Source: Dehalococcoidia bacterium | GTDB lineage: Bacteria > Chloroflexota > Dehalococcoidia > Lucifugimonadales > UBA3495 | NCBI GenBank assembly: GCA_963422765.1 | Contig: OY730490.1 | Span: 1,613,861-1,677,860, forward strand | Length of the DNA stretch: 64,000 bases | Direction of reading: 5' to 3' | Part shown: positions 5,184 through 35,300 of the stretch, piece after piece | Layout: the number at the start of each line of letters is the position of its first letter | How positions within the stretch are numbered: the first letter of the stretch is position 1 | Position numbers and translations under genes: made by a program | Notes under the pieces: model-generated | Seen by the model: only the letters and a program-made list of their open reading frames with translations | What the model was told of the DNA's origin: nothing | The model's database searches: none

Positions 5184-6152
5184 TCAGCAGAGGGTCGAGT
5201 AGGCGGAGAGCTTGGCGACCAACCGGGCGGCAGTGTAGGAGCAGGCGACCGGGCCTTCTGCGGGAGACAGTTCGCACACATCGAAACCGACAATTCGCCG
5301 CGATTCGCCAATCCGCCGCAACAGCGACGTTACCTGAATCCAGTTCAGGCCGCCGGGCTCCGGCGTTCCCACCGCAGACATCAGCGAGGGGTCAAACACG
5401 TCCAGGTCAACGCTGACGTATACATCATCGCCCAGCGCAGCCAGTATGTCGCCGGCGGGCAGAGGGCTGCCGTCCGGCGGGCATTGCCAGGCAGAGATGC
5501 TGTTGTCGCGGATGAAGTCGCGCTCTTCGAGACAGAGACTGCGGACGCCGGCCAATACGATAGGGCAGTGTTCAAACACCCGCCGCGCTCCTGACGCGTG
5601 TCCCCAAGGCGTGCCTTGGTATTGGTCTCGAAGGTCGGCGTGGGCGTCCAAGTATAAAACGCTCAGGGAAGGGCAGGCTTCGAAGTGGGCCTGAACGCTG
5701 CCTGCAGTCAGGGAGTGTTCGCCGCCCAAAACGCCAACAGCGCGACCGGGGTTAATACAGGAGGCCACCGCTTCCCGCACCCGCTGCGTCATAGGGCCGG
5801 GGCCGCCCATGTGCGGCTCCAGAGCGGGCGTGGTGTGGATACCCAGCGCGGCCACGTCCAGATCCAGCTCCGGGTCATAGTCTTCCATCTGTCCGGAGGC
5901 GGCTATGATGGCCGCCGGGCCGTCCCGCGCGCCGCCCCGGTACGACGTGGTGCTGTCGTACGGAACAGGAATGAGGACCACCCGGGCGGTTTCCAAGGCA
6001 GACTGCTCTGGGGGCAGGGCGAGAAATCCGGGGTAAATCCACGGAATCCCGGAAGCGCGTTCCCGATCCGTTTCACCCACGGCCAATCTCAGGCCTGTCA
6101 GTGGCAAGAGCGGCCCGTTGCGCCTGGGATTCCGCCAATCCTTGACCCTCAT
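5184..6152 (-). CDS. speB: Agmatinase (ureohydrolase family)
   Basis: GGEHSLT, DAHADLRD and SVDLDVFDPS Mn-binding motifs. The true start may lie downstream, because the ORF overlaps the speH 3' end by 80 nt. Confidence 0.75.
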   Translation of the reverse strand: MRVKDWRNPRRNGPLLPLTGLRLAVGETDRERASGIPWIYPGFLALPPEQSALETARVVLIPVPYDSTTSYRGGARDGPAAIIAASGQMEDYDPELDLDVAALGIHTTPALEPHMGGPGPMTQRVREAVASCINPGRAVGVLGGEHSLTAGSVQAHFEACPSLSVLYLDAHADLRDQYQGTPWGHASGARRVFEHCPIVLAGVRSLCLEERDFIRDNSISAWQCPPDGSPLPAGDILAALGDDVYVSVDLDVFDPSLMSAVGTPEPGGLNWIQVTSLLRRIGESRRIVGFDVCELSPAEGPVACSYTAARLVAKLSAYSTLC

Positions 6153-6670: not shown

Positions 6671-7618
6671 ATGCAGCCTTCGATGATTCAGGCCAGCGGT
6701 GTTACCCATTATTACGGGCCATATCCGGCCATCCAGGACGTAAGTTTCGACGTAAGAAAGGGCGAAGTCCTCGGGTTTTTGGGGCCTAACGGCGCCGGCA
6801 AGACCACTACCATGCGCATTTTGACCGGCTTCCTGCCGCCATCCCGCGGCTCAGTGAGTCTCGACGGATTCGACGTTGTGGAGAAGTCCCTGGAAGTGCG
6901 AAAGCGGGTAGGCTATCTGCCGGAAACGGTGCCTCTCTACACGGATATGACGGTAACCAGCTATCTAAAATACATGGGAACGCTGCGGGGAATGCCTGCC
7001 TCGCGCCTCCGCGCCCGCTGGGGGGAGGTCATAGAAATTTGTCGCCTGGGGGACTACCGCAAGACCCAGATTGGCAAGCTCTCCAAGGGATTCCGGCAGC
7101 GCGTCGGCATCGCTCAGGCCATCATCCATGAGCCGGAAGTGCTGGTGCTGGACGAGCCGACTATCGGCATAGACCCCATCCAAGTAGTCGAGACCCGCAA
7201 CCTGATCCAAGAACTGGGCCGCGCCCAGACGGTGGTGCTGAGCAGCCACATCCTGCCCGAAGTCAGCATGATCTGCGAGCGCGTGCTTATCATCCATGAG
7301 GGGCGAATCGTCGCGGAAGACACCCCACAGAATCTGGCCGACTCCCTCCAGGGCGTTGAGCGGCTGGAAGTGGAGGTCGCCGGCCCGTCCGCCGAGGTAT
7401 TGCCCGTGTTGCAGAAAATAGACGGGGTTATCACCGTCAGCCACCGCAACCTCCAAGGCCGCCACACCTACATCATCCAGGCGCGGCCGGGCCGCGACCT
7501 TCGGGACGAAATCTCCCGGTCTGTAATCAGCAACGGCTGGAGCCTGCGGGGGATGCAGTTAATGGGCATGAGCCTGGAAGAAATTTTCCTGCGCTTGACC
7601 ACGAAAGAGGACTTGTAG
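6671..7618 (+). CDS. ABC transporter ATP-binding protein (ABC-2/GldA-like)
   Basis: Walker A GPNGAGKTT, signature LSKGFRQR, Walker B VLVLDEPT. Confidence 0.85.
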   Translation: MQPSMIQASGVTHYYGPYPAIQDVSFDVRKGEVLGFLGPNGAGKTTTMRILTGFLPPSRGSVSLDGFDVVEKSLEVRKRVGYLPETVPLYTDMTVTSYLKYMGTLRGMPASRLRARWGEVIEICRLGDYRKTQIGKLSKGFRQRVGIAQAIIHEPEVLVLDEPTIGIDPIQVVETRNLIQELGRAQTVVLSSHILPEVSMICERVLIIHEGRIVAEDTPQNLADSLQGVERLEVEVAGPSAEVLPVLQKIDGVITVSHRNLQGRHTYIIQARPGRDLRDEISRSVISNGWSLRGMQLMGMSLEEIFLRLTTKEDL

Positions 7619-24998: not shown

Positions 24999-25040
24999 GA
25001 AGGCCACTGCATGGAATGGGGAAGGCCACTGCATAGAATG
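24999..25040. repeat. Two 20-nt direct repeats with 22-nt period
   Basis: GAAGGCCACTGCATGGAATG at 24999-25018 and GAAGGCCACTGCATAGAATG at 25021-25040 (19/20 identical), between the endoQ-like and rimI-like genes. Confidence 0.85.
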
Positions 25041-25140: not shown

Positions 25141-26421
25141 TCAAAGCAGCGCCGCCTGCTGCCCGTCACCATCCGCCTCGGACCAGACCCGCACCGCGCC
25201 GTACTGACCGTCAAAGCCCGGCTCGGCCACTACTTTTCCGGTGCGGGCCCTCAGGATAGCTTCAGCCACCTTGTCCCCGGCCACCTGACGCAAATCCGCA
25301 GCATCCGCCCAAGCCAGCGCCGCCAGTTCGTTGCCAAGCTCGGCGCACAGCCTCTGGTAGACTTTTGCCACGGCCTTGCTGCGCCGGCCCACGCCCAGAG
25401 TCTCCGCCAGCAGTTCCTCCAAGGGAACCAGCCGCAGGAAAGGCGGGCGTTCATTTAGCGGACGAATGAATCCGTCCGCGCCAGGCCCCACCGCGTAGCT
25501 TTCTCCTTCGCAGGATCCGGAAGACAGCGAGCGCACCCGGTGCAGCACTCCCAAAGTCAGCGGACGCTCACACACCGGACAGCGTCCGTTGCCCTGCGCG
25601 GCAGTTTCCAGAGGAGACTGCCTCAACCCGCAGTTACGGTGTCCGTTGAAGTGATATTTACCCTCTTCGGGATAAAACTCCACGGTATAGGCTACTGCGT
25701 TACGTTCCACAGCTTCCTTGAGACACCCATACGTAGGCTCGCCTCTGAATACGGTGACTTCCCGCCCCAAGTTGGGCAGCGAATGGGCGTCGGAAAAGGA
25801 GAGGATGGCCCGGTCTTCTAACCCGGGAATTTCCCAATTCATGGCCGGATCGCTGGAAAGCCCGGTTTCCACTGCGCGAATCTGCGGCGTCGACTCCCCG
25901 AAGCATTCTTCCAGGCTATCGAAGCCTGACACCGAACCCAGCAAACCGTACCAGGGCGTCCAGAGATGAGCGGGTATCACCATCGCCCCGGGGTCAACGT
26001 CCAGCGCGAGGAACGCCAGTTCCGCCGCCGAGAGTCCAACCGACGGGCGCCCGTCGCCTTCCAGCTTGACGCCCCGCCGGGAAAGTTCCGCGTTGAACCG
26101 CTTTACCCCTTCCAGCGACGGCATAAACAGCAACAAGTGAAGCCGCCGGGCTTTGCCGCCCTGCCGGTAAACGCAGCTAACCTCCGTGCCTAAAACGAAG
26201 TTGACGCCACCATACTCAAAAGTTCCATCGCCTATCGGAGTGAGGTTTGATTCCAACTCCGCCAACCACGCGGGGTGCGTGAAGTCGCCGGTTGCCAGCA
26301 GCCCGATGCCCTTGGTTTTCGCCGCGGCCGCCAGGTTTGGTAGCGTGAGGTTCCTGCTGCACGCATAGGCGTAGCGGGAATGGATGTGGAGGTCGGCGAC
26401 AAATTCGTGCTGGACGTTCAT
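25141..26421 (-). CDS. PHP-domain protein resembling endonuclease Q (TIGR00375-like)
   Basis: N-terminal DLHIHSRYAYACSR PHP motif, GDFTHPAW, and a CxxC zinc-finger-like element CPVCERPLTLGVLHRV. Length is 426 aa. The assignment is from memory of EndoQ architecture. Confidence 0.55.
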   Translation of the reverse strand: MNVQHEFVADLHIHSRYAYACSRNLTLPNLAAAAKTKGIGLLATGDFTHPAWLAELESNLTPIGDGTFEYGGVNFVLGTEVSCVYRQGGKARRLHLLLFMPSLEGVKRFNAELSRRGVKLEGDGRPSVGLSAAELAFLALDVDPGAMVIPAHLWTPWYGLLGSVSGFDSLEECFGESTPQIRAVETGLSSDPAMNWEIPGLEDRAILSFSDAHSLPNLGREVTVFRGEPTYGCLKEAVERNAVAYTVEFYPEEGKYHFNGHRNCGLRQSPLETAAQGNGRCPVCERPLTLGVLHRVRSLSSGSCEGESYAVGPGADGFIRPLNERPPFLRLVPLEELLAETLGVGRRSKAVAKVYQRLCAELGNELAALAWADAADLRQVAGDKVAEAILRARTGKVVAEPGFDGQYGAVRVWSEADGDGQQAALL

Positions 26422-26571
26422 CTTGGGAGTCTACCACAAGGCAAAACCGCCGGGCTGATCACCACGGCGGCCTTTCCTAGCCGCCGTTCCACTCGCATTA
26501 GGCGGAATGCGGCCACAAAGAACAAAATGATTATTGGCATATCCCGCCTCATGAATGTCTGTCTCCCAAAA

Positions 26572-26612
26572 GCATTGATGGCATCTTCGCTGGATGAAGA
26601 TGCCATCAATGC
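26572..26612 (-). terminator. Rho-independent terminator of the secreted-protein/mini-TM operon
   Basis: Perfect 17-bp stem (GCATTGATGGCATCTTC / GAAGATGCCATCAATGC) with a 7-nt loop, followed by TTTT on the - strand. Confidence 0.7.
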
Positions 26613-26712
26613 GGCGCTTCGAATTTTCGGGGCTTCGGTCTTAGGGCGCCGGGCAATGATTCAGGCCAACGGCAACCGGGCTGTCCTCTATCTGATTAGA
26701 ACAGGTATCTGA

Positions 26713-26904
26713 TTAAAACAGGTTGGTGGACACCGGGACGGAAAACAGTCCCGCCAGCAGATAGAGCGCCCCTAGTCCAATACTCCAGTATCCCAACCAC
26801 CTGAGCAACGGATGCTCCCCCTTAAAGACCAGCAGCATCCCCAAGGACGCAGGTATGGCGGCAGTGATGACTGTTTCCGCGATTCCCACAATTGTGAATG
26901 CCAT
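26713..26904 (-). CDS. 63-aa two-TM mini-protein (paralogue of 28091-28405)
   Basis: RBS GGGAGGTAATAGAG before the ATG. It shares LLRxxGxWSIGLGALxLLxG with the paralogue. Confidence 0.6.
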   Translation of the reverse strand: MAFTIVGIAETVITAAIPASLGMLLVFKGEHPLLRWLGYWSIGLGALYLLAGLFSVPVSTNLF

Positions 26905-26951
26905 CTCTATTACCTCCCGTCTTGGAGTCTAGGCAATTCCCAAGGCGCTGG

Positions 26952-27605
26952 TCAGTGAGTGGCCGACGCAATGTATGTCCCATCACCGTATTGCCGCTTC
27001 GTGATCGACGGATATTTGTGAGTGTGGCAATCGGAGCCGTCGCATATCCTGAAATGGCCTTGGACGTAGTCCCAGTGTTCCCACTGGTTCTTTCCGCCGC
27101 CTGAGCTTTGATTGATATTGCCTACATACTCCCATCCTGGCCAGTGCACCGTCCCGCGAATGCGGATTTCGGGGGCAGAGGTGATTCGGGAGCCATCCCA
27201 ACACCATCTCGTGTCAGAGTGGAACTTGAACATATCCACGTTGACAAAGAAGATGCGTTCTTCCCAAACATAGATTAATTTCTGCGTCGCGCAATTAACG
27301 GCACCGGAATCCGCTTGGCCAAAACCTTCATGTTCACTGGGAAGGAAATTGGTCTCCAATGTTACTTCCAACCTGCCATTACCCCTTTCGGACACAAATT
27401 TCTGAACTGCTTGGCGCTCTGCCGGGCTCAGTTGATTAAGCGCCTCTTCCCGGTCTCCGGCCTGAGCTATCTCTGCTGCAATACCTTCGACCACCTCCGG
27501 GTCGTCAAGGTCGGGTGGGGGTTCCTGAGCCTGCACACCTCCTGCGACGGCGAATAACAGGGCCGCCAGCGCCAGGATAACCGTGAGTTTGATTCTGGCT
27601 GTCAT
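26952..27605 (-). CDS. Secreted Cys-containing protein of unknown family (intact paralogue)
   Basis: Signal peptide [37 protein letters not shown]. Shares the motifs CAT, WCWDG and PGW with the copy at 29341-30143. Confidence 0.65.
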   Translation of the reverse strand: MTARIKLTVILALAALLFAVAGGVQAQEPPPDLDDPEVVEGIAAEIAQAGDREEALNQLSPAERQAVQKFVSERGNGRLEVTLETNFLPSEHEGFGQADSGAVNCATQKLIYVWEERIFFVNVDMFKFHSDTRWCWDGSRITSAPEIRIRGTVHWPGWEYVGNINQSSGGGKNQWEHWDYVQGHFRICDGSDCHTHKYPSITKRQYGDGTYIASATH

Positions 27606-27682
27606 GGTTCACACCCCCTTGCGCTCTGCCTCCATTCGGCGGATTTGGCCTTTCCGCTTTAGCCTGGAGAGCTGATACATCA

Positions 27683-27711
27683 TTTATATCAATAAAAACT
27701 ATCACTGTCAA
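27683..27711 (-). promoter_or_regulatory. Strong sigma-70-like promoter (module copy A)
   Basis: On the - strand: TTGACA, 17-nt spacer, TATAAA. Conserved at 30221-30249. Confidence 0.55.
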
Positions 27712-27714
27712 CGT

Positions 27715-27730
27715 TGTGAAAACAATCACG
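27715..27730. promoter_or_regulatory. CRP/FNR-type palindrome TGTGA-N6-TCACG abutting the -35 (copy A)
   Basis: TGTGAAAACAATCACG. The identical sequence is at 30253-30268. Confidence 0.35.
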
Positions 27731-27843
27731 ATATTATGTATTCATAAATAGATGTTGCAGGCTCCTCCAGTCTTAGGCCCGGAAAACCGGCGCTACGAAC
27801 CGGCGAACCAGCCTATAAAAGCGGATCCCTCAGTTGAGGCATC

Positions 27844-27890
27844 CCGCTGCTTACCCGGCTTGGCCGCTTGGATTAAGTGGCGAGGCATGG
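27844..27890. repeat. 47-nt dispersed repeat R, copy 1
   Basis: CCGCTGCTTACCCGGCTTGGCCGCTTGGATTAAGTGGCGAGGCATGG, 46/47 identical to 28632-28678. Confidence 0.9.
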
Positions 27891-27938
27891 AATCGTAATC
27901 TGTTACGCTAGTAGAATCCCTTGTCCCCGCTGGTCGGA

Positions 27939-28094
27939 TTACCAGACAGGCTTCCGGCTCTTCCAGTAACGGTAGCCGCCATACGCCGCAAACGCCGCAG
28001 CCGCCAAGTTTGGCAGCGTGCGGTTCTTGCTCCAGGCATAGGCGCAGCGGGAATGGATGTGGAGGCCGGCGACAAATTCCTGTTGGGCGTTCAT
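27939..28094 (-). pseudogene. Duplicated 5' fragment of the endonuclease-Q-like gene (51-codon remnant)
   Basis: It encodes MNAQQEFVAGLHIHSRCAYAWSKNRTLPNLAAAA..., compared with MNVQHEFVADLHIHSRYAYACSRNLTLPNLAAAA at 26421. The upstream hairpin region is also duplicated (to about 28145). Confidence 0.8.
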
Positions 28095-28405
28095 CCCGCG
28101 AGTCTGACACAAGGCAAAACCGCCGGGTTTGCAAACCCGGCGGCATAGCGGAAAGCGGGTGAGGAGGCCGGAACGCCCGATAACCCTGTCAGTTTCTCAT
28201 CCTTGAGCCGCCTCGAAGGGCGCAGGCAGTAGCAGCAGCCAACGAGGAATCCCAAGAGCAAGACCAGAGCGCCCAGACCAATACTCCAGAAGCCCATCGA
28301 GCGAAGGAGCGGGGAGTATGCTTTGGCGACTAGCACTCCGCCGGCGGAGGCTGGCGCTACTGCGATGATGATCACTACAGCGAACCAGGTGAACGTCTCT
28401 GCCAT
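28091..28405 (-). CDS. Two-TM mini-protein paralogue with C-terminal extension (104 aa)
   Basis: The ATG at 28405 is preceded by AAGGAGGTGATTAAA. The core is homologous to 26713-26904. The reading frame runs on into duplicated non-homologous sequence and ends in an ATGA overlap with the endoQ fragment. Confidence 0.55.
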   Translation of the reverse strand: MAETFTWFAVVIIIAVAPASAGGVLVAKAYSPLLRSMGFWSIGLGALVLLLGFLVGCCYCLRPSRRLKDEKLTGLSGVPASSPAFRYAAGFANPAVLPCVRLAG

Positions 28406-28491
28406 TTTAATCACCTCCTTGTCTTGAGGTCTGCCGGTTTCTAGGGATTCAATCACGGGGCGCTCTGTCCGTCCTCTGTTGTTCTTGGTCT

Positions 28492-28617
28492 CTACTGGCC
28501 ACTCAAAATCCAACTGGAAGTCCCATCTGCATACTGGTACTTCGTTACCGACGGGTACTTGTGATATGCGCAGGCACTCGTGAATGGCAGGCAGAGCTTG
28601 AAGTGACCTTCGACGGG
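28492..28617 (-). pseudogene. C-terminal remnant of a third secreted-protein paralogue fused to the leader
   Basis: It translates to PVEGHFKLCLPFTSACAYHKYPSVTKYQYADGTSSWILSGQ*, which aligns with VQGHFRICDGSDCHTHKYPSITKRQYGDGTY of 26952-27605. No start codon or signal peptide is present. Confidence 0.7.
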
Positions 28618-28631
28618 CGGACTTGGCCTTT

Positions 28632-28678
28632 CCGCTGCTTACCCGGCTTGGGCGCTTGGATTAAGTGGCGAGGCATGG
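28632..28678. repeat. 47-nt dispersed repeat R, copy 2
   Basis: 46/47 identical to 27844-27890. Confidence 0.9.
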
Positions 28679-28732
28679 GAGAGGCTCTGTTTCTGTTCGG
28701 AATCCTAGCGTAGGAAAGCATCCGCAAACCGG

Positions 28733-29314
28733 CTACCCGGCCAAGGACATCACTGAATACACACCTAGGATGCCTGCGAGGCTGATAAGACCTGTCCCCA
28801 TCCACCATACAGCCGAATTTCGTGGGTCCCGGACCAATATCACTCCCAGCATCGCCGGTATAGCAGCCCAAGCGGCAGACTCAATGAGAAATAGAGTAAC
28901 GTAGACCGCCTGCGAAAGGGTGGGGGCCGTCTCCATGGTTAACAAAGCGCCGGTCAAGCCCTCAATGGAAGCGGAAACCGCATTTATCCCGGAAGCCTCT
29001 AGGATCCATATAACTGGAAGGGCAAGAAGCGCGAAAACCGCCCGGTTTGCAACGCCAGGGTGCCGAGGGCCACGCCATACTGTGCAGACAGCCACCGGAA
29101 AAGCCCCCAGACAGACTAACGGCAACAACCTGAATCCCCAACCCAAAAGAAACGGCCGACCGGAAAGGTCTACGAATCCCGCTACCAGGCTGGCAACACA
29201 GACTACACCCAGGGCCGCTCCTATTGCCTGGGTCGCTCCATTCTGTGCATAACGAGATAATGACTCGCTTGCTAGGGCTACGCAGAGGGCGGCGATTAGA
29301 TATTCCTCATCCAT
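28733..29314 (-). CDS. Polytopic membrane protein, unknown family (193 aa, about 6 TM)
   Basis: Hydrophobic helices run throughout the protein. It lies immediately downstream of the decayed secreted-protein gene. Confidence 0.45.
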   Translation of the reverse strand: MDEEYLIAALCVALASESLSRYAQNGATQAIGAALGVVCVASLVAGFVDLSGRPFLLGWGFRLLPLVCLGAFPVAVCTVWRGPRHPGVANRAVFALLALPVIWILEASGINAVSASIEGLTGALLTMETAPTLSQAVYVTLFLIESAAWAAIPAMLGVILVRDPRNSAVWWMGTGLISLAGILGVYSVMSLAG

Positions 29315-29340: not shown

Positions 29341-30143
29341 TCAGCCATCTACTGGCACAAAGGCCCGAGACCTGGGTGAACAGTGCATTCGGGGGGTTGC
29401 CGTGCAAGAAGATGTCCCGTCACCGTTATGGCGTTTGGATACCGACCCCATAACTTCACTCCAACACCAGATAAAGCAGTATTGAAATTTGCCTATAGCG
29501 GCGTCTTCGTGAAATAAATCCCCTTGTGTTCCGTAGCTTTGTTTACTTGTGTTCCGTAGCTTTGTTTAATGGTGTGCCTCTGAAATTACCAGCCAGGGCC
29601 GGGGGTATAAGCGTTCACTTGAAAGAGCGGCTCAGACGCAATGCTCACCCCGTCCCAGCACCAATAAGTCGATGACCGGTAGCGCCACTTTGGGTCGCCG
29701 GTTCTGCCGTAGTCTTCAGCAGTTCTTGTGTGCGTAGCGCAGGAGGTGCTTGCCAGCAAGCCGTCAGGGGCATCAAACAGAGCAGACGTATCCAGCACAT
29801 CTCCTTCAGCAGCTTTCAGTTGAGGTTGAATAACCGCCCATTCGGCCGGATTATCGATAGCCCAACGAATGCTATTTTTCGCCCACGCCAGAAGCTCTGC
29901 CGTTTCGCCATCAGACAATTCTGAGGAATAAGTGTGCTTTAAAACGGCTGCCAGTTGTTCATCCGACAGTTTGGATGCTTCCAGAGCCCGGTCATCTGCT
30001 GAGAACACCTTCCCGGCCAGATTTTTGACCACCTCCGGGTCGTCAAGGTTGGGTGGGGGTTCCTGAGCCTGCACACCTCCTGCGACGGCGAATAACAGGG
30101 CCGCCAGCGCCAGGATAACCGTGAGTTTGATTCTGGCTGTCAT
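29341..30143 (-). pseudogene. Secreted-protein paralogue disrupted by a TAA nonsense codon and a 23-bp tandem duplication
   Basis: It has the same signal peptide as 26952-27605. The TAA at 29586-29588 aligns with a Glu (PGW-E-Y) in the intact paralogue. With one duplication copy removed, the downstream frame continues into homologous ...GKFQYC...SKRHNGDGT. Confidence 0.7.
29523..29568. repeat. Perfect 23-bp tandem duplication
   Basis: CTTGTGTTCCGTAGCTTTGTTTA occurs twice in tandem. Confidence 0.95.
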
Positions 30144-30220
30144 GGTTCACACCCCCTTGCGCTCTGCCTCCGACGGGCGGACTTAGACTTCCTTTTTTAG
30201 CCAGGGGATCTAATATATCG

Positions 30221-30249
30221 TTTATATCAATAAAAATTATCACTGTCAA
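30221..30249 (-). promoter_or_regulatory. Strong sigma-70-like promoter (module copy C)
   Basis: On the - strand: TTGACA, 17-nt spacer, TATAAA. Confidence 0.55.
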
Positions 30250-30252
30250 TGT

Positions 30253-30268
30253 TGTGAAAACAATCACG
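30253..30268. promoter_or_regulatory. CRP/FNR-type palindrome TGTGA-N6-TCACG (copy C)
   Basis: TGTGAAAACAATCACG, identical to 27715-27730. Confidence 0.35.
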
Positions 30269-30490
30269 ATATTGTGTATCTGGCATGATGATTTTGCGTC
30301 TTTAGCTTTCAACTTCACGGCTCGAAACCGGCGGAGGTAACCCGCCGACGGCTCGTGGCCTCTGTCCCGCCCTTGACCGGCGGCGAAGGCGGTTTTATTC
30401 TTTATGATATAAATCTTCAACTGTCTTACATTTTGTCCGTCTGTCCGTCTCAATAACCCCGTCTCAATAACCAGGGAGGAAAGGAGAGCA

Positions 30491-32098
30491 ATGCCAGCCA
30501 AGAGCATTATCAGCGACCAAGCCGCGCAGCAGGCCCTGTTGCACGGCATCTCCATGGTGTCCAATGCGGTCGGGCGCACTCTGGGGCCCAAGGGCCGCAA
30601 CGTGGCCGTGGAAAAGAAATGGGGCGCCCCGGTCATCACCAACGACGGCGTCACCATCGCCAAAGAGGTGGAGCTGCCCGAATCCTTCGAGAATATGGGC
30701 GCCCAGCTAATCAAGGAGGCCGCCAGTAAGACCAACGACGTGGCCGGCGACGGCACTACTACCGCCACCGTGCTGGCCCATACCATCGTCCGCGAGGGTA
30801 TGCGGAACGTGGCCGCCGGGGCCGATCCCATGGCCATCAAGCGCGGGCTGGACAAGTGCGTTCAAGCCTTGGTGAAAGAGCTGGCCGGAATCTCGACGCC
30901 GGTGCAGGGCCGCGATCAGATGTCCCAGGTCGCCACAATTTCCGCCAACGACAGCGAGATCGGCAATATGCTGGCCGACGTGCTGGAGCAGGTGGGAGCC
31001 GAGGGCGTGGTCACCATCGAAGAAGGCAAGGGCGTCGAATCCGAGACCGAGTACGTCGAGGGCATGAACTTCGACCGCGGCTACATCAGCCCCTATTTCG
31101 TCACCAACCCAGAGCGGATGGAATCCGTCATTGAGAGTCCACATATTCTGGTGACAGACAAAAAAATCTCCTCGGCCGCCGAGCTGGTGCCAGTCCTGGA
31201 GAGCGCGCTTCAGGTCACCCGCAACCTGGTGGTCATCGCCGAAGACGTGGAGAGCGAGGCGCTGGCGGTTCTGGTGGTCAACAAACTGCGCGGCACCATC
31301 AACTGCCTGGCGGTAAAGGCCCCAGGATTCGGTGACCGCCGCAAGGCCATGCTGGAAGACATAGCCATCCTCACCGGCGCCCAAGTGGTGTCCGAAGAGC
31401 GGGGACGCCGGCTGGACCAAGCCACCGCCGCCGACCTCGGCCAAGCCCGGCGCATCGAAACCACTAAAGACCGCACCACCATCGTCGGCGGCAGCGGCGA
31501 CCCGGTGGATATTAAAGGCCGGGGCGAGCAGATACGGGTACAAATTGAGGAAACCACCTCCGAATACGACAAGGAAAAGCTCCAGGAACGGCTGGCCAAG
31601 CTGTCCGGCGGCGTGGCGGTGGTCAAGGTTGGCGCCCCCACGGAGCCAGAATTGAAAAACCGCAAGGCCCGCGTGGAAGACGCCCTGTCGGCCACCCGCG
31701 CCGCAGTGGAAGAGGGCATCGTCCCCGGCGGCGGCGTGGCCTACATCCGCGCTATGTCTGCGCTGGACGGCGCCAGTCTCACCGGCGACGAGGAAGTGGG
31801 CCGCACCATCCTTAGAAAAGCCTTGGAAGAGCCAGTGCGCATCATCGCCCGCAACTCCGGCGGAGAGCCCGCCGTGGTGGTGGACGAGGTGCGCCGCAAC
31901 AGCGCCCGCAACTTTGGCTACGACGCGGCCCGCGGCGAGTTCGGCGATATGGTGGAGCGGGGCATCATTGACCCGACCAAAGTATCTCGCTCGGCCTTGG
32001 AGAACGCCTCCAGCGTGGCCGGCATGATACTGACCACCTACTCGCTGATTACTCCCGAGGAAGAGGAGAAACAGGACCACCACGGCCATCATCACTAG
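30491..32098 (+). CDS. groEL: Chaperonin GroEL (60 kDa) with His-rich C-terminus
   Basis: Canonical N-terminus ...[50 protein letters not shown]. It ends ...[12 protein letters not shown] instead of a GGM tail. Confidence 0.95.
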
Positions 32099-32367: not shown

Positions 32368-35300
32368 TCAGCCGCCGCTACTGTAATCCGGCAGTATCAC
32401 TCGCACCGAATCGTCAATGGCGGTCATAATACCCTCTATTTCCCGGTCTCGCAGCACATCGTTGCGCTTGATGCGACGGCGCCCGGCCTGCGCCTCCGTC
32501 ACCAGCGCCGCAACCCGCCGGTGGGCCAGCTCCGACTGCGCCGACAGATTGGAGTGGTGTTCGTTGCCAGCATCAAAGGCCGGGATGGGCAGATTTTCGA
32601 TAGGTCCCATCTGAAAGTGTCGGTCTGACAAGCGACAACATTTCTTAAAGAAATCCGCAAGTGCTGGAGCATTGAAAACAGCAGACAAGTAGTAAAGCTC
32701 ATTACCATCACCCGACGCATACCAATTTAACGTCCCGTCAATAACAATCCCTGGCGGAGCTACGGCAGAAATCAACCAAGAACCAGAGCGCTGATATATT
32801 ACTTTACAGTGCTCTGTGTTACAAAGCTGCGACGATAGTTTTCCTTGATAGTCCACTTGGTCAAGCAAGGTATGGGGCGGGCGAGGGCCGCTCAGACGGC
32901 GCCAATCCCGGTCAGCGTTATCCCAATATACCCGGAAATCCGCCGCGGCCTCCCCTTGCGGCAAACCGGATTCCAGCCTTCGGCCATCTTCGCTAAAAGG
33001 AGCGATGATGTGGGAATAGCCGTTAACGCCAAAGGGCAGCAGCAGCCGGGAAAACAGCGCCGGCCTTACAAACCGCTTTTCAATCCGGCCATCCCGTTCC
33101 TTACCCTTCCAGGCGCCTTTGCCGGTATTCGTTCTGAAATACACTTTACTCAACGCCTTAGACGAAGGCTGCTCAAAAACCACCAGCGGCTGCGGAAAGA
33201 GCGTTGCCCCATTACGGAAAGCATTGGCGTAGGCGGGGCTGGGGGCCGTGGCCCGGTTTTGCCGAGGGGTGAAAGTCAATTTGGGGCGAACTTCATCCCA
33301 CGGCATTTTGGGGTTGACCAGCCCGGCGTTGGCGACTTCCTGAATTCCAGACAGCGGCACGGCTTTGGCCTGCCGCTGCTCATCGGTATTCAATTTCGTT
33401 CCGAAAATCACCGCCGAATTAGCTTGGGGGAAGGGCGGAGCTTTGACTTTTATAAAGTCCCAAGCATCCTTGCTAAGGACGGCGAGATTGGCCCGGTGGC
33501 TGGCGGTTGCGAGCAGGCTCCACTCCCCGGAACGGAAGGGCGCCCACTGGCGGGCGCGCAGGGCGGCATAAGGCAAGACAAAGCCGAACTTGCCGCCGGG
33601 TTTCAGGTAGTAATCCACGCAGGTAGCCACAAAGGTTGCCGCCAGGTCATTCTGAGTCGCCAGATTGCGCCCGGCCCACAGCTTGCGGGCCTGCGCCTGT
33701 TGCCGGAAGGCGTCCTGCCGGTCAGCGGCCATCGCGTTGTAGACTACCCAAGGCGGGTTGCCGATGAGCCGCGAGGCTGGCAGTTGCGCCAAGCGGTAGG
33801 GCTGGGCCAAGTTGGAGATGTACCAGAGCCATACATGGTTGCGCCCTTCTTCAATGTAGCGGCGCACCCGGCGGTAAACCTCAAGCATTGCCTCCTTTTC
33901 GACGCCGGTATTGAGGCCAAGCGCCGCCGCCAAGTCCTCCTCGATACCGGGGTAATCGGAGAGCTCGGCATAGTCAAAGACTTGGTTCAGACAAGGGCGA
34001 AACAGGTCAGAGAGCAGGAGAGTGCGGGGGAGTTTTAGTGGTGCGTCCGGGGCATCGGTGGGAATGCTCACCAGGGCGTCTAACTCAAAGAGCGTCTGGT
34101 TGTGGGTAATATCCCATTGCAGACTGTCGCCGAGATATACCCCAACATCATTTTCAGATTTTGCGTCCTATGCAAAATCTGAAAATGATAAAATTTTTGT
34201 GGTTTTAGCCAATTCAACCGCGACCGGGTGCAGGTCCATCCCGGCAACCAGGCCGTTGACCATTTCAACCTGAGCTTGCGGGCTGTTCGCCAGTTCCGGA
34301 TGCTCGCGGGCGTCTTCCAGAAGCAGTTGGACGGCGTGAAACAGGAATGTGCCGGAGCCGCACGCCGGGTCAAGAACCGCCGGGCCCGGCATCTGGCCGG
34401 CCACGGCCAGCTCGATGACTTCCCTCCGCCACTCCGCATCCATCACTTCTTCACACACCGCGCGGGCCAGCCAGTCGGGGGTGTAGTATTCGCCGAAATC
34501 GTGGCGTATGTCGCGGGGAATGACAACGTGATACAAGTCTTTCAGCGTGTCTCTGCCGTAGGACTGCCAATCGTAGCGGCCCACTTTTGCAATTATGTCA
34601 TCCAGCATATCCTCCCCTGCTTTCCCGGCGGCGTCCAGCAGCCATGCAGCGAAACCCTGAGTCAGATCGGCGTGAAGGCGGTCGCGGTTCAGCGCTTGGG
34701 GCGTCACCGGCAGAATGGTATTGGCCACAGCGCGGGCAATTACCACCAGCATGGTATGGCGGGCAAAGAGGTCTCGCTCGGCGGCGCTGTCGCTGGGCGG
34801 GGTAATGTAGGCTCCTCGCAGCACATCGCGCCACAACTTGCGTTTCACGTCGTAGGCCGGCGATTGGTGGCAGGCGCCGGCCAAGTCAATGTACCGCATA
34901 GCCAAATCTTCCACCCATTTTTCATCATCGGTGGGCGGGGTCAGTTTCGTCGCACGGTCTACAAACTCATATAGATACTCCAAAAGCACATCGTCATCAT
35001 CCGGGGCATACAGGCTGAGTTCCCGCTCCAGTGTCAGACGCTGCGCCGACGGCAAATCCAAGTCAGATCTGTAGCTATAAAAGCTCCATTCCTTGCCATC
35101 GGTAATACAAGAACGCCAGCCCGTATGGCCCAAGTCAAGCAATCTGGGTTTCTGGGACAAGGCGTCCAGGTAGCGGACGGCCTGCTCTTCGGGGGTTTCG
35201 ACGGAGCGATCTGGTTTGGTTCGGGCGTCATCTTTTTTGCCCTGCCGTTTGGTCTCGAAAACCACGTTCCGGCAGTAAACGTCTACCGGCCCATCCCCGG

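Follow-up and report, generated by a model that had tools for sequence, protein, structure and literature searches.

A strain-variable gene module of an exported protein and a small two-helix membrane partner beside groEL in a Dehalococcoidia bacterium

Introduction

Why should a gene for an exported, cysteine-containing protein be followed by a gene for a tiny membrane protein, and why should such pairs lie side by side in several copies? The question is raised by a locus in 64,000 nucleotides (nt) of a Dehalococcoidia bacterium genome (contig OY730490.1, positions 1,613,861 to 1,677,860 of the forward strand). We refer to this whole stretch as the window and number positions from its first letter. 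The exported protein, of 217 amino acids (aa), is encoded intact at 26952-27605 and its small companion, a 63-aa hairpin of two transmembrane (TM) helices, at 26713-26904, both on the minus strand. The original prediction, made from the letters alone, placed these proteins in no known family and compared the locus with effector/immunity or surface-variation systems.

Here, we report that the pair is a conserved module, that its two parts are fused into single polypeptides in other lineages, and that near-identical strains carry different exported types at the same chromosomal site. The reading that we favour, tentatively, is a surface domain split into an exported part and a membrane part. We weigh this against the alternatives below.

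Results

The exported protein belongs to a rare family

The 217-aa protein, which we call B-type, starts with a Sec-type signal peptide; a three-helix region and a beta domain of ~115 aa with four cysteines follow. Judged by eye, the signal peptide is likely cleaved between VQA and QE. A word-indexed search of 5.8 billion proteins identified only six relatives, none of them named; with a profile of 83 sequences, this kind of search returned 8 proteins. An exhaustive HMMER search of 1.84 billion representatives, with a profile of the C-terminal 118 residues, detected 318 clusters at E<=1e-3, and 73 at E<=1e-10. We conclude that the family is real but rare. Most members are ~200 aa long and an N-terminal hydrophobic segment is present in 94 of the 127 members that reach at least 150 aa. 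Usually, a short helical region precedes the beta domain. The latter is marked by four Cys residues and the motifs S.T.WC[WY][DN]G, WE[FY].G, GG.G, QG.F..C and YP.I.K.QYG.G. A Pfam signature for twin-arginine translocation (TAT) occurs in 2 of 83 members scanned.

Across 107 members, the only positions conserved at 90% or more are the four Cys and certain Gly, Trp, Pro and Phe/Tyr residues; no polar position of catalytic type reaches this level. The pattern suggests a binding or structural domain rather than an enzyme. An AlphaFold2 model, made with the 107-sequence alignment, has three helices and a long antiparallel beta meander (pLDDT 90.1, pTM 0.71). Foldseek comparisons (two models against PDB, and the better model alone against BFVD) gave nothing at E<=1e-3. 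The best matches had E-values of about 0.01-0.05 with TM-scores below 0.4. These top matches (lmo2686, fetuin/latexin, paramyxovirus G, and gasdermin/pneumolysin pores) are not significant and we did not use them.

Searches of Pfam, NCBIfam, PHROGs and PADLOC found no significant match for any component of the module. Note that the Pfam scans covered the window proteins, 83 family members, several of the small membrane proteins and the fusion proteins described below. Sub-threshold matches to TMEM61, DUF2537, DUF1304 and Trp_oprn_chp were dismissed as noise. A profile search against PDB sequences gave nothing below E=0.5, and literature searches returned nothing relevant to the module. The claim that these proteins fall outside known families has thus withstood library, PDB-sequence and Foldseek searches, with profile and structure checks run on the 217-aa protein. 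Both the protein families and the fold are undescribed; only the genetic logic of the locus has precedents.

The exported protein and the hairpin form a conserved pair

How widely are the two genes found together? Scanning one genome per GTDB species revealed ten loci, all in metagenome-assembled genomes of Chloroflexota/Dehalococcoidia. The exported proteins at these loci are 31-51% identical to that of the window. Directly after the exported gene, all ten have an open reading frame (ORF) of 62-96 aa with two TM helices. The spacing varies from an overlap, in a few cases, to at most about 270 nt. Four of the ten ORFs reach E<0.05 with a hidden Markov model (HMM) built only from small proteins of the window's own clade. 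The same gene order, exported protein and then two-TM protein, is present in closer relatives, at the syntenic loci L002, L004 and L016. Hence, the pairing seen in the window holds at every distant GTDB locus and at every syntenic one. Copies can also be dispersed. The 3.63-Mb sequence OZ253463.1 has at least 4, three of which appear intact while another, L015, is broken.

When GTDB species representatives were scanned with an alignment of close relatives there was no match, so the window's own species is not among them. Scans of JGI metagenomes and of IMG/VR found no relatives, and no copy was seen on viral contigs. As far as sampled, the module is confined to Chloroflexota.

Topology of the hairpin proteins

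The window encodes two of the small proteins, mini-A and mini-B. They match each other (BLASTP E=2e-9) and score between 1e-24 and 1e-29 with an HMM of the minis. In the 104-aa ORF of mini-A, only about the first 60 residues are family-like. Features of these hairpin partners are P..G in TM1, a basic loop, and W.G.G in TM2. In 15 minis, Lys and Arg residues total 39 in the loop between the TM helices, 1 in the N-terminal tail and 6 in the C-terminal tail. This concentration of charge predicts a cytoplasmic loop with both termini outside.

A third protein is related to the minis. It has 193 aa and six TM helices (28733-29314, minus strand), the last two of which are homologous to the minis (E-values 1e-6 to 5e-9). 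The 6-TM protein may be a triple hairpin. It has orthologues in strain L001, a close relative of the window, and at L004 and L016.

Fusion proteins join the beta domain to hairpins

The strongest evidence that beta domain and hairpin may work as one membrane-associated unit is that some proteins contain both. In P0008 (543 aa) and P0012 (594 aa), the signal peptide, helical region and beta domain are followed by one or more hairpins, a second beta domain, and a further hairpin. P0058, P0065 and P0120 have a beta domain and then a hairpin. The order is reversed in P0046, where a mini-like hairpin comes directly before the beta domain (mini HMM, independent E-value (iE) 5e-6). Free minis and fused hairpins align in register over 48 columns (hhalign E=8.5e-5).

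Neither the second beta domain of P0008 and P0012, nor the domain of P0046, has a signal peptide. The preceding TM helix must therefore export these domains, which agrees with N-out/C-out hairpins. The fusions span several clusters that are less than 50% identical to one another, and some are on Mb-scale contigs (for P0012, a contig of 3.97 Mb). That fusions recur in both orders, and as doubled domain-hairpin units, speaks for a hairpin that acts in cis, as a membrane partner or anchor, and against one that gives immunity to a diffusible toxin.

Near-identical strains carry different exported types

We distinguish two types of exported gene at the groEL site, A and B. In every genome examined, the site has a different set of genes. 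Listed 5' to 3', the window has an A-type pseudogene (29341-30143, minus strand), the 6-TM gene, a remnant exported gene with mini-A, a partial copy of the adjacent PHP-domain gene, the intact B-type gene, and mini-B. Strain L001 has the A-type pseudogene, the 6-TM gene, the partial PHP copy, a B-type pseudogene and mini-B; the remnant and mini-A are missing. At L002 there is a B-type gene, a mini, and a 204-aa protein. At L012, where GroEL is 94% identical to that of the window, the site has an exported gene with a 5' deletion, a mini, a four-TM (two-hairpin) gene and a 203-aa protein. The order at L004 is B, mini70, mini58 and 6-TM, and at L016 it is A, mini58, mini70 and 6-TM.

The last two loci were recovered in one study, each from its own sample, and their groEL/groES and GNAT regions are 96-97% identical. 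At the same site, L016 has an A-type gene (P0044, 271 aa) and L004 a B-type gene (P0005, 213 aa). Identity breaks about 122 nt into the exported gene. This is the same boundary that separates A from B in the window, where identity stops ~120 nt (40 codons) into the gene. The minis of the two strains are 93-95% identical with their order swapped: the one next to A is mini58, and the one next to B is mini70. In the 6-TM proteins, roughly the first 60 residues agree, after which the alleles diverge, with 55% amino-acid identity overall. Hence, the 6-TM allele changes with the exported type. The 6-TM protein of the window, which is beside an A-type pseudogene, is closer to the allele of the A-type strain.

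Residues 1-40 of the exported proteins are 95-98% identical between paralogues within a genome, compared with 48-55% between orthologues of different lineages. Here, paralogues resemble each other more closely than orthologues do, which points to concerted evolution, or to recurrent exchange, at the 5' end of the unit. We call this end the 5' handle. Types A and B each have an intact orthologue in another lineage (P0044 and P0005), and we take them to be old paralogues. The original description of a multi-copy, variable locus is borne out by different exported types in near-identical strains, by orphan remnants, and by hairpins that outlive their partners. That the copies are 'diversifying' holds for the variability, and is in part an illusion, given that A and B are old paralogues and that two of the three copies in the window are dead.

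Exported genes decay while hairpin genes stay intact

Strain L001 is 96-99% identical to the window. Its B-type exported gene has three frameshifting indels. Conversely, there are none in mini-B (192 nt) or in the PHP gene (1281 nt). Assembly error is an unlikely cause of the frameshifts, because the neighbouring genes on the contig are free of indels. Broken exported genes with intact minis are also found at L011, at L012 (the 5' deletion noted above), and at L015. Neither L001 nor L012 has an intact exported gene at the groEL locus. The asymmetry is only weakly significant, at about p=0.1 after ascertainment, by a rough estimate from lesion counts and gene lengths.

Organisation of the array in the window

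The array consists of three tandem units, one of them intact, between groEL (30491-32098, plus strand) and the PHP gene (25141-26421). All of its features are on the minus strand. Unit 1 has, in order, a promoter (30221-30249), the A-type pseudogene, and the 6-TM gene directly 3' of it. Unit 2 begins with a 47-nt element (28632-28678). After it, a fragment of a 5' untranslated region (UTR; 28607-28636) runs straight into what is left of a third exported gene, which is B-like: its final ~30 codons (..ACAYHKYPSVTKYQYADGTSSW..). The whole remnant spans 28495-28638. Next is mini-A (28091-28405, counted from ATG), with the ribosome-binding site AAGGAGGTGA and ~60 N-terminal residues that form the hairpin. 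A terminator-like hairpin (28116-28144) lies inside the tail of this ORF. Finally, the end of the duplicated unit is marked by a second copy of the sequence 5' of the PHP gene and of its initial ~37 codons (27940-28144). Unit 3 has the second 47-nt element (27844-27890), a promoter, the intact B-type gene, mini-B, a hairpin with a TTTT tail, and the full-length PHP gene. The two 47-nt elements, which begin CCATGCCTCGCCACTTAATCCAAGCG, are 98% identical. They are the only occurrences in the window, and each forms the upstream edge of its unit.

The putative promoter of unit 3, found by pattern search, is TTGACA and TATAAA separated by 17 nt (27683-27711). An identical motif precedes the A-type copy, and the -35 hexamer is invariant in five loci from four lineages. 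Mini-B has a GGGAGG ribosome-binding site and follows the exported gene after a spacer of 47 nt. Beyond mini-B, a hairpin with a 17-bp stem and TTTT tail (26568-26612) resembles a terminator; RNAfold gives -30.5 kcal/mol for 26560-26625. With its conserved promoter, 47-nt spacing, ribosome-binding sites and terminator hairpins, one unit looks like a single operon. An Rfam scan found no RNA family anywhere in the window.

The array is a tandem segmental duplication. Its upstream edge is a stretch of 256 nt with 91% identity between 30024-30279 and 27486-27741 (both minus strand). These are the 5' handles of units A and B, which comprise the promoter, 5' UTR, signal peptide and 13 mature codons. 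The downstream edge, 135-152 nt at 84-87% identity, relates 27993-28144 to 26320-26471, where the PHP gene has its 5' end. Between these edges, only ~30% amino-acid identity is left. The family HMM matches the intact copy at 7e-65, the ORF of the decayed A-type copy (29586-30143) at 3e-23, and the out-of-frame tail of the latter (29344-29565; the pseudogene runs to about 29341) at 5e-10. It also matches the remnant, directly 5' of mini-A, at 1.4e-12. The ORFs and motifs listed in the original prediction are all where it placed them, on the minus strand, and these scores, with the match between the minis, confirm the kinship that it saw among the exported copies and between the small proteins. 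Its list of copies was right for those that it named; the third copy, in the remnant, and the segmental nature of the duplication had escaped it.

Two lesions account for the A-type pseudogene. The stop codon TAA is at 29586-29588, where the intact 271-aa orthologue P0044 has Gln. In addition, a 23-nt tandem duplication (29523-29568) shifts the frame, which is restored on removing one copy. Strain L001 has the same truncation (P0006). The C-terminal ~45 residues of the mini-A ORF are probably adventitious read-through, because the frame continues through the hairpin at 28116-28144 and into the duplicated region upstream of the PHP gene.

Similar repeats occur elsewhere. Three independent loci have direct repeats, 150-300 nt long and derived from adjoining sequence, on either side of the module. 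At L011, the repeats are 5478-5777 and 6822-7121 (98% identity). At L015, they are 5517-5788 and 7064-7335 (87% identity), and derive from the 3' end of queA. The third case is the pair of PHP 5' ends in the window, described above. This arrangement suggests that the module spreads or turns over without a transposase, either through tandem duplication or through looped-out circles that integrate again.

Neighbouring genes

The PHP gene encodes 426 aa and matches TIGR00375 with E=1e-49, which is below the curated cutoff of that model. The record of its L001 orthologue lists Pfam MJ0043_C, and we take the protein to be of the EndoQ type. The original prediction noted that the array lies next to a DNA-repair gene. 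This adjacency is incidental: the gene is absent from the L004 and L016 loci, and other copies of the module are in unrelated contexts. We rejected a functional link on the same grounds. The genes that follow the PHP gene are GNAT/rimI-like, coaE and cbbQ-like. The GNAT region (24999-25040 and about 25013/25113) has a 20-nt tandem repeat, and indels of 22 and 24 nt, upstream of or within the long GNAT ORF, separate the window from L001. The 381-aa ORF in the window is probably over-extended; the L001 gene is called at 251 aa.

On the other side, groEL abuts the module without groES in the window (30280-30490), L001, L002 and L012. At the equivalent junction of L004 and L016, groES and groEL are together. 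For a 567-aa ORF past groEL (32368-34071, minus strand), the likeness to type IIG restriction-modification enzymes is confined to their methyltransferase portion (PADLOC REase_MTase_IIG, 1.5e-19, profile positions 567-692 of 1100), with a weak match to Pfam Eco57I. The ORF may be a truncated or remnant restriction-modification gene. An N6_Mtase/Eco57I gene is on the same side of groEL in L002.

The exported proteins of ~204 aa, at L002 (8445-9059) and L012 (8738-9346), are encoded between the mini and the PHP gene. Their likeness to the family is limited to the signal and helical motif at the N terminus (HMM E-values 2e-3 to 3e-5); they have no beta domain, and may be a further partner or cassette type. 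The genes around the module, in about 15 loci, either have housekeeping roles or encode histidine kinases, and none of these surroundings includes an ABC exporter, a processing protease or a secretion system. At the Dehalococcoidia loci L009, L010 and L014, the upstream, divergently transcribed neighbour is a PAS histidine kinase, with GAF domains at L009 and L014. The L009 kinase is a hybrid with receiver and Trans_reg_C domains, and L010 also has a DDE transposase downstream. The kinases may point to a regulatory link or merely to orthology of those loci.

Discussion

What might the module do, given the gene anatomy, family membership, pair conservation, fusions, topology signal, cassette swapping and pseudogenes observed here? 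Our favoured answer, which we rate at a little under an even chance, is a split, membrane-docked, non-enzymatic surface domain. Its ectodomain cassette would be variable, dispensable, and exchanged via the conserved 5' handle. The locus would thus be a strain-variable cassette array of a two-component cell-envelope module. Each unit would comprise a strong sigma-70-type promoter, a gene for a Sec-exported protein of ~200 aa, a gene for a ~60-aa hairpin ~50 nt downstream, and a terminator. The exported protein is predicted to lose its signal peptide by cleavage, which leaves a short helical region and a beta-meander domain of ~115 aa with two likely disulfides. The hairpin, with both termini outside and its basic loop in the cytoplasm, would dock the beta domain at the external surface of the cytoplasmic membrane, as might the related 6-TM protein. 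Hence, the pair would be a split version of a membrane-tethered ectodomain. The latter would most likely be a non-enzymatic surface for binding or recognition. It would also be the exchangeable part, with A and B types recombined in and out at the 5' handle and frequently lost. Fusions, topology, operon structure and the absent catalytic signature all support a split, membrane-docked ectodomain. Physical docking, binding in place of catalysis, and selection behind the variation are steps that we infer.

Several observations pull the other way. Outside the cell, the minis have stretches of only 3-10 residues, and HMM matches to hairpins within the fusions are individually weak (iE 1e-3 to 2e-2). 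L004 and L016 have a single exported type each, although both keep both minis, a pattern to be expected of orphan immunity genes. In addition, hairpin genes are intact beside a dead exported partner in L001, L012, L011, L015, and units 1 and 2 of the window. An anchor with nothing left to anchor should decay too.

These points bring us to the main rival, in which the beta protein is a secreted antibacterial effector that attacks the membrane or envelope of related cells, and the hairpin or 6-TM protein confers immunity in the membrane of the producer. Strains would then swap effector cassettes and accumulate orphan immunity genes. The leader-like conserved 5' handle, the sharply divergent mature part, and the replacement of A by B in near-identical, co-sampled strains all fit. 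So does the placing of mini58 directly after A and mini70 directly after B, yet both strains hold both. Repeated decay of exported genes beside intact hairpin genes, and the orphan remnant with mini-A, are also as expected. The model has long beta hairpins, and pore-forming toxins are among the non-significant Foldseek matches. However, the recurrent, maintained fusions, including hairpin-first and doubled polytopic forms, mean that the domain cannot diffuse away. Furthermore, Pfam and NCBIfam scans matched no known toxin, bacteriocin (including Lactococcin_972) or immunity family, and an exporter, processing protease or secretion system is missing from the surroundings of about 15 loci. The minis of L004 and L016 are conserved to the level of their flanks, with no sign of an arms race. 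We regard an effector with its immunity protein as a live rival, though a rather unlikely one, and not as the best-supported reading. The likeness to effector/immunity or surface-variation loci in the original prediction stands as a description of the pattern. Overall, the earlier interpretation is partly supported.

Two further explanations fare worse. An ordinary, lineage-specific envelope pair could be passing neutrally through rounds of tandem duplication, gene conversion and decay, so that the cassette pattern is recombination noise at a duplication-prone site, with no selected variation. The death of two of the three units in the window, and the lack of an intact exported gene at the L001 and L012 loci, would be natural outcomes. 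The long direct repeats that bracket modules in the window, L011 and L015 are typical of duplication and loop-out. Nevertheless, we consider this improbable. Both A and B are conserved across lineages with intact orthologues, and the recombination boundary is at an identical codon in two lineages. One genome has at least four dispersed copies, of which three are apparently intact, and the confident fold obtained from the 107-sequence alignment shows that the family is under purifying selection. An exported enzyme with a small membrane anchor, as in RdhA/RdhB of Dehalococcoidia, or a lysis cassette of the holin/endolysin type, is more improbable still, and we give it very little credence. The order of exported protein and then small hydrophobic protein, several paralogous pairs per genome in Dehalococcoidia-related organisms, and the occasional TAT signal would suit it. 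Conversely, there are no cofactor motifs, only four conserved Cys, and no invariant polar residue of catalytic type. A prophage or lysis cassette was rejected: PHROGs gave no match at E<0.01, viral contigs have no copy, and synteny beside groEL on the chromosome is conserved.

How does the locus compare with known systems? Polymorphic toxin/immunity loci (CdiA-CT/CdiI, Rhs-CT/RhsI, LXG) likewise keep their N-terminal region conserved and then change abruptly to divergent C-terminal parts. Here, the drop is from 95-98% identity in residues 1-40, within a genome, to ~30% after. They share a small partner gene directly downstream (ten of ten loci here), tandem orphan 3' fragments with partner genes (the remnant and mini-A in the window), and allelic replacement between close strains. 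However, conservation here does not extend beyond a promoter, a Sec signal peptide and 13 residues. Across Pfam, NCBIfam, PADLOC, PDB and Foldseek searches, and in the neighbourhoods of the loci, we found no delivery domain, no type 5, 6 or 7 secretion system and no recognisable toxin domain. The partner is a two-TM hairpin that, in other lineages, is covalently fused to the variable domain, and these fusions argue against protection. Some bacteriocins and cannibalism toxins are exported by Sec and have membrane immunity proteins, such as the lactococcin 972 family and SdpC/SdpI of Bacillus subtilis. Again there are parallels: the precursor is exported and ~100-200 aa long, it has a signal peptide and disulfide(s), and a membrane protein is encoded next to it. 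Unlike those systems, the module has no ABC transporter or SdpAB-like maturation gene, and its fusion architectures are incompatible with a freely released toxin. Pfam Lactococcin_972 (PF09683) matched neither the window proteins at E<=0.1 nor 83 family members at E<=0.01. No bacteriocin-associated ABC transporter or multi-TM immunity gene is adjacent in about 15 loci.

The RdhA/RdhB pairs of Dehalococcoidia, in the same phylum, also have an exported-protein gene and then a tiny hydrophobic anchor gene, with many paralogous pairs per genome. OZ253463.1, with its four or more copies, is similar in this regard. The working logic is alike, in that a soluble exported subunit is held at the membrane by a separate mini-subunit. 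In contrast, there is no homology, and export is mostly by Sec rather than TAT (the TAT signal being limited to 2 of 83 members). No Fe-S motifs (RdhA has two), corrinoid-binding domain or other Pfam domain was found, and a ~115-aa beta domain replaces a ~500-aa enzyme. Loci of variable surface proteins that keep their leader conserved, such as the Vsp/Vlp lipoprotein families of Mycoplasma, are similar in having a homogenised promoter and signal peptide, divergent mature parts, tandem arrays, and copies that are often inactivated. They differ in that most members here have no lipobox, there is no repeat-based phase variation, and anchoring would use a separate hairpin protein. The genetic logic recalls polymorphic toxin loci and leader-conserved surface families, and the subunit logic recalls RdhA/RdhB; the molecular traits that define these systems are missing. 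Variable cassettes of an exported protein and a membrane partner are thus a kind of locus with precedent, built here from new components.

Could the module be more than a variable surface domain? It is conceivable, though we would not bet on it, that this is a cell-surface recognition or antagonism system of monoderm Chloroflexota, with a new fold, a new mini-membrane partner, and a specificity cassette that co-existing strains exchange through the conserved handle of promoter and signal peptide. If true, it would be an independent counterpart of polymorphic toxin and kin-discrimination loci that operates via the general Sec pathway. Concerted evolution at the locus is confined to the promoter and signal peptide. 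Chloroflexota, and Dehalococcoidia among them, are abundant and mostly uncultured, and their cell envelopes are poorly understood. A partner confirmed through repeated gene fusion, and cassette exchange between near-identical strains, strengthen the case that a conserved module that looks highly expressed, and has a confidently predicted, unmatched fold, may offer a way to learn how these organisms build and vary their surfaces, or compete with close relatives.

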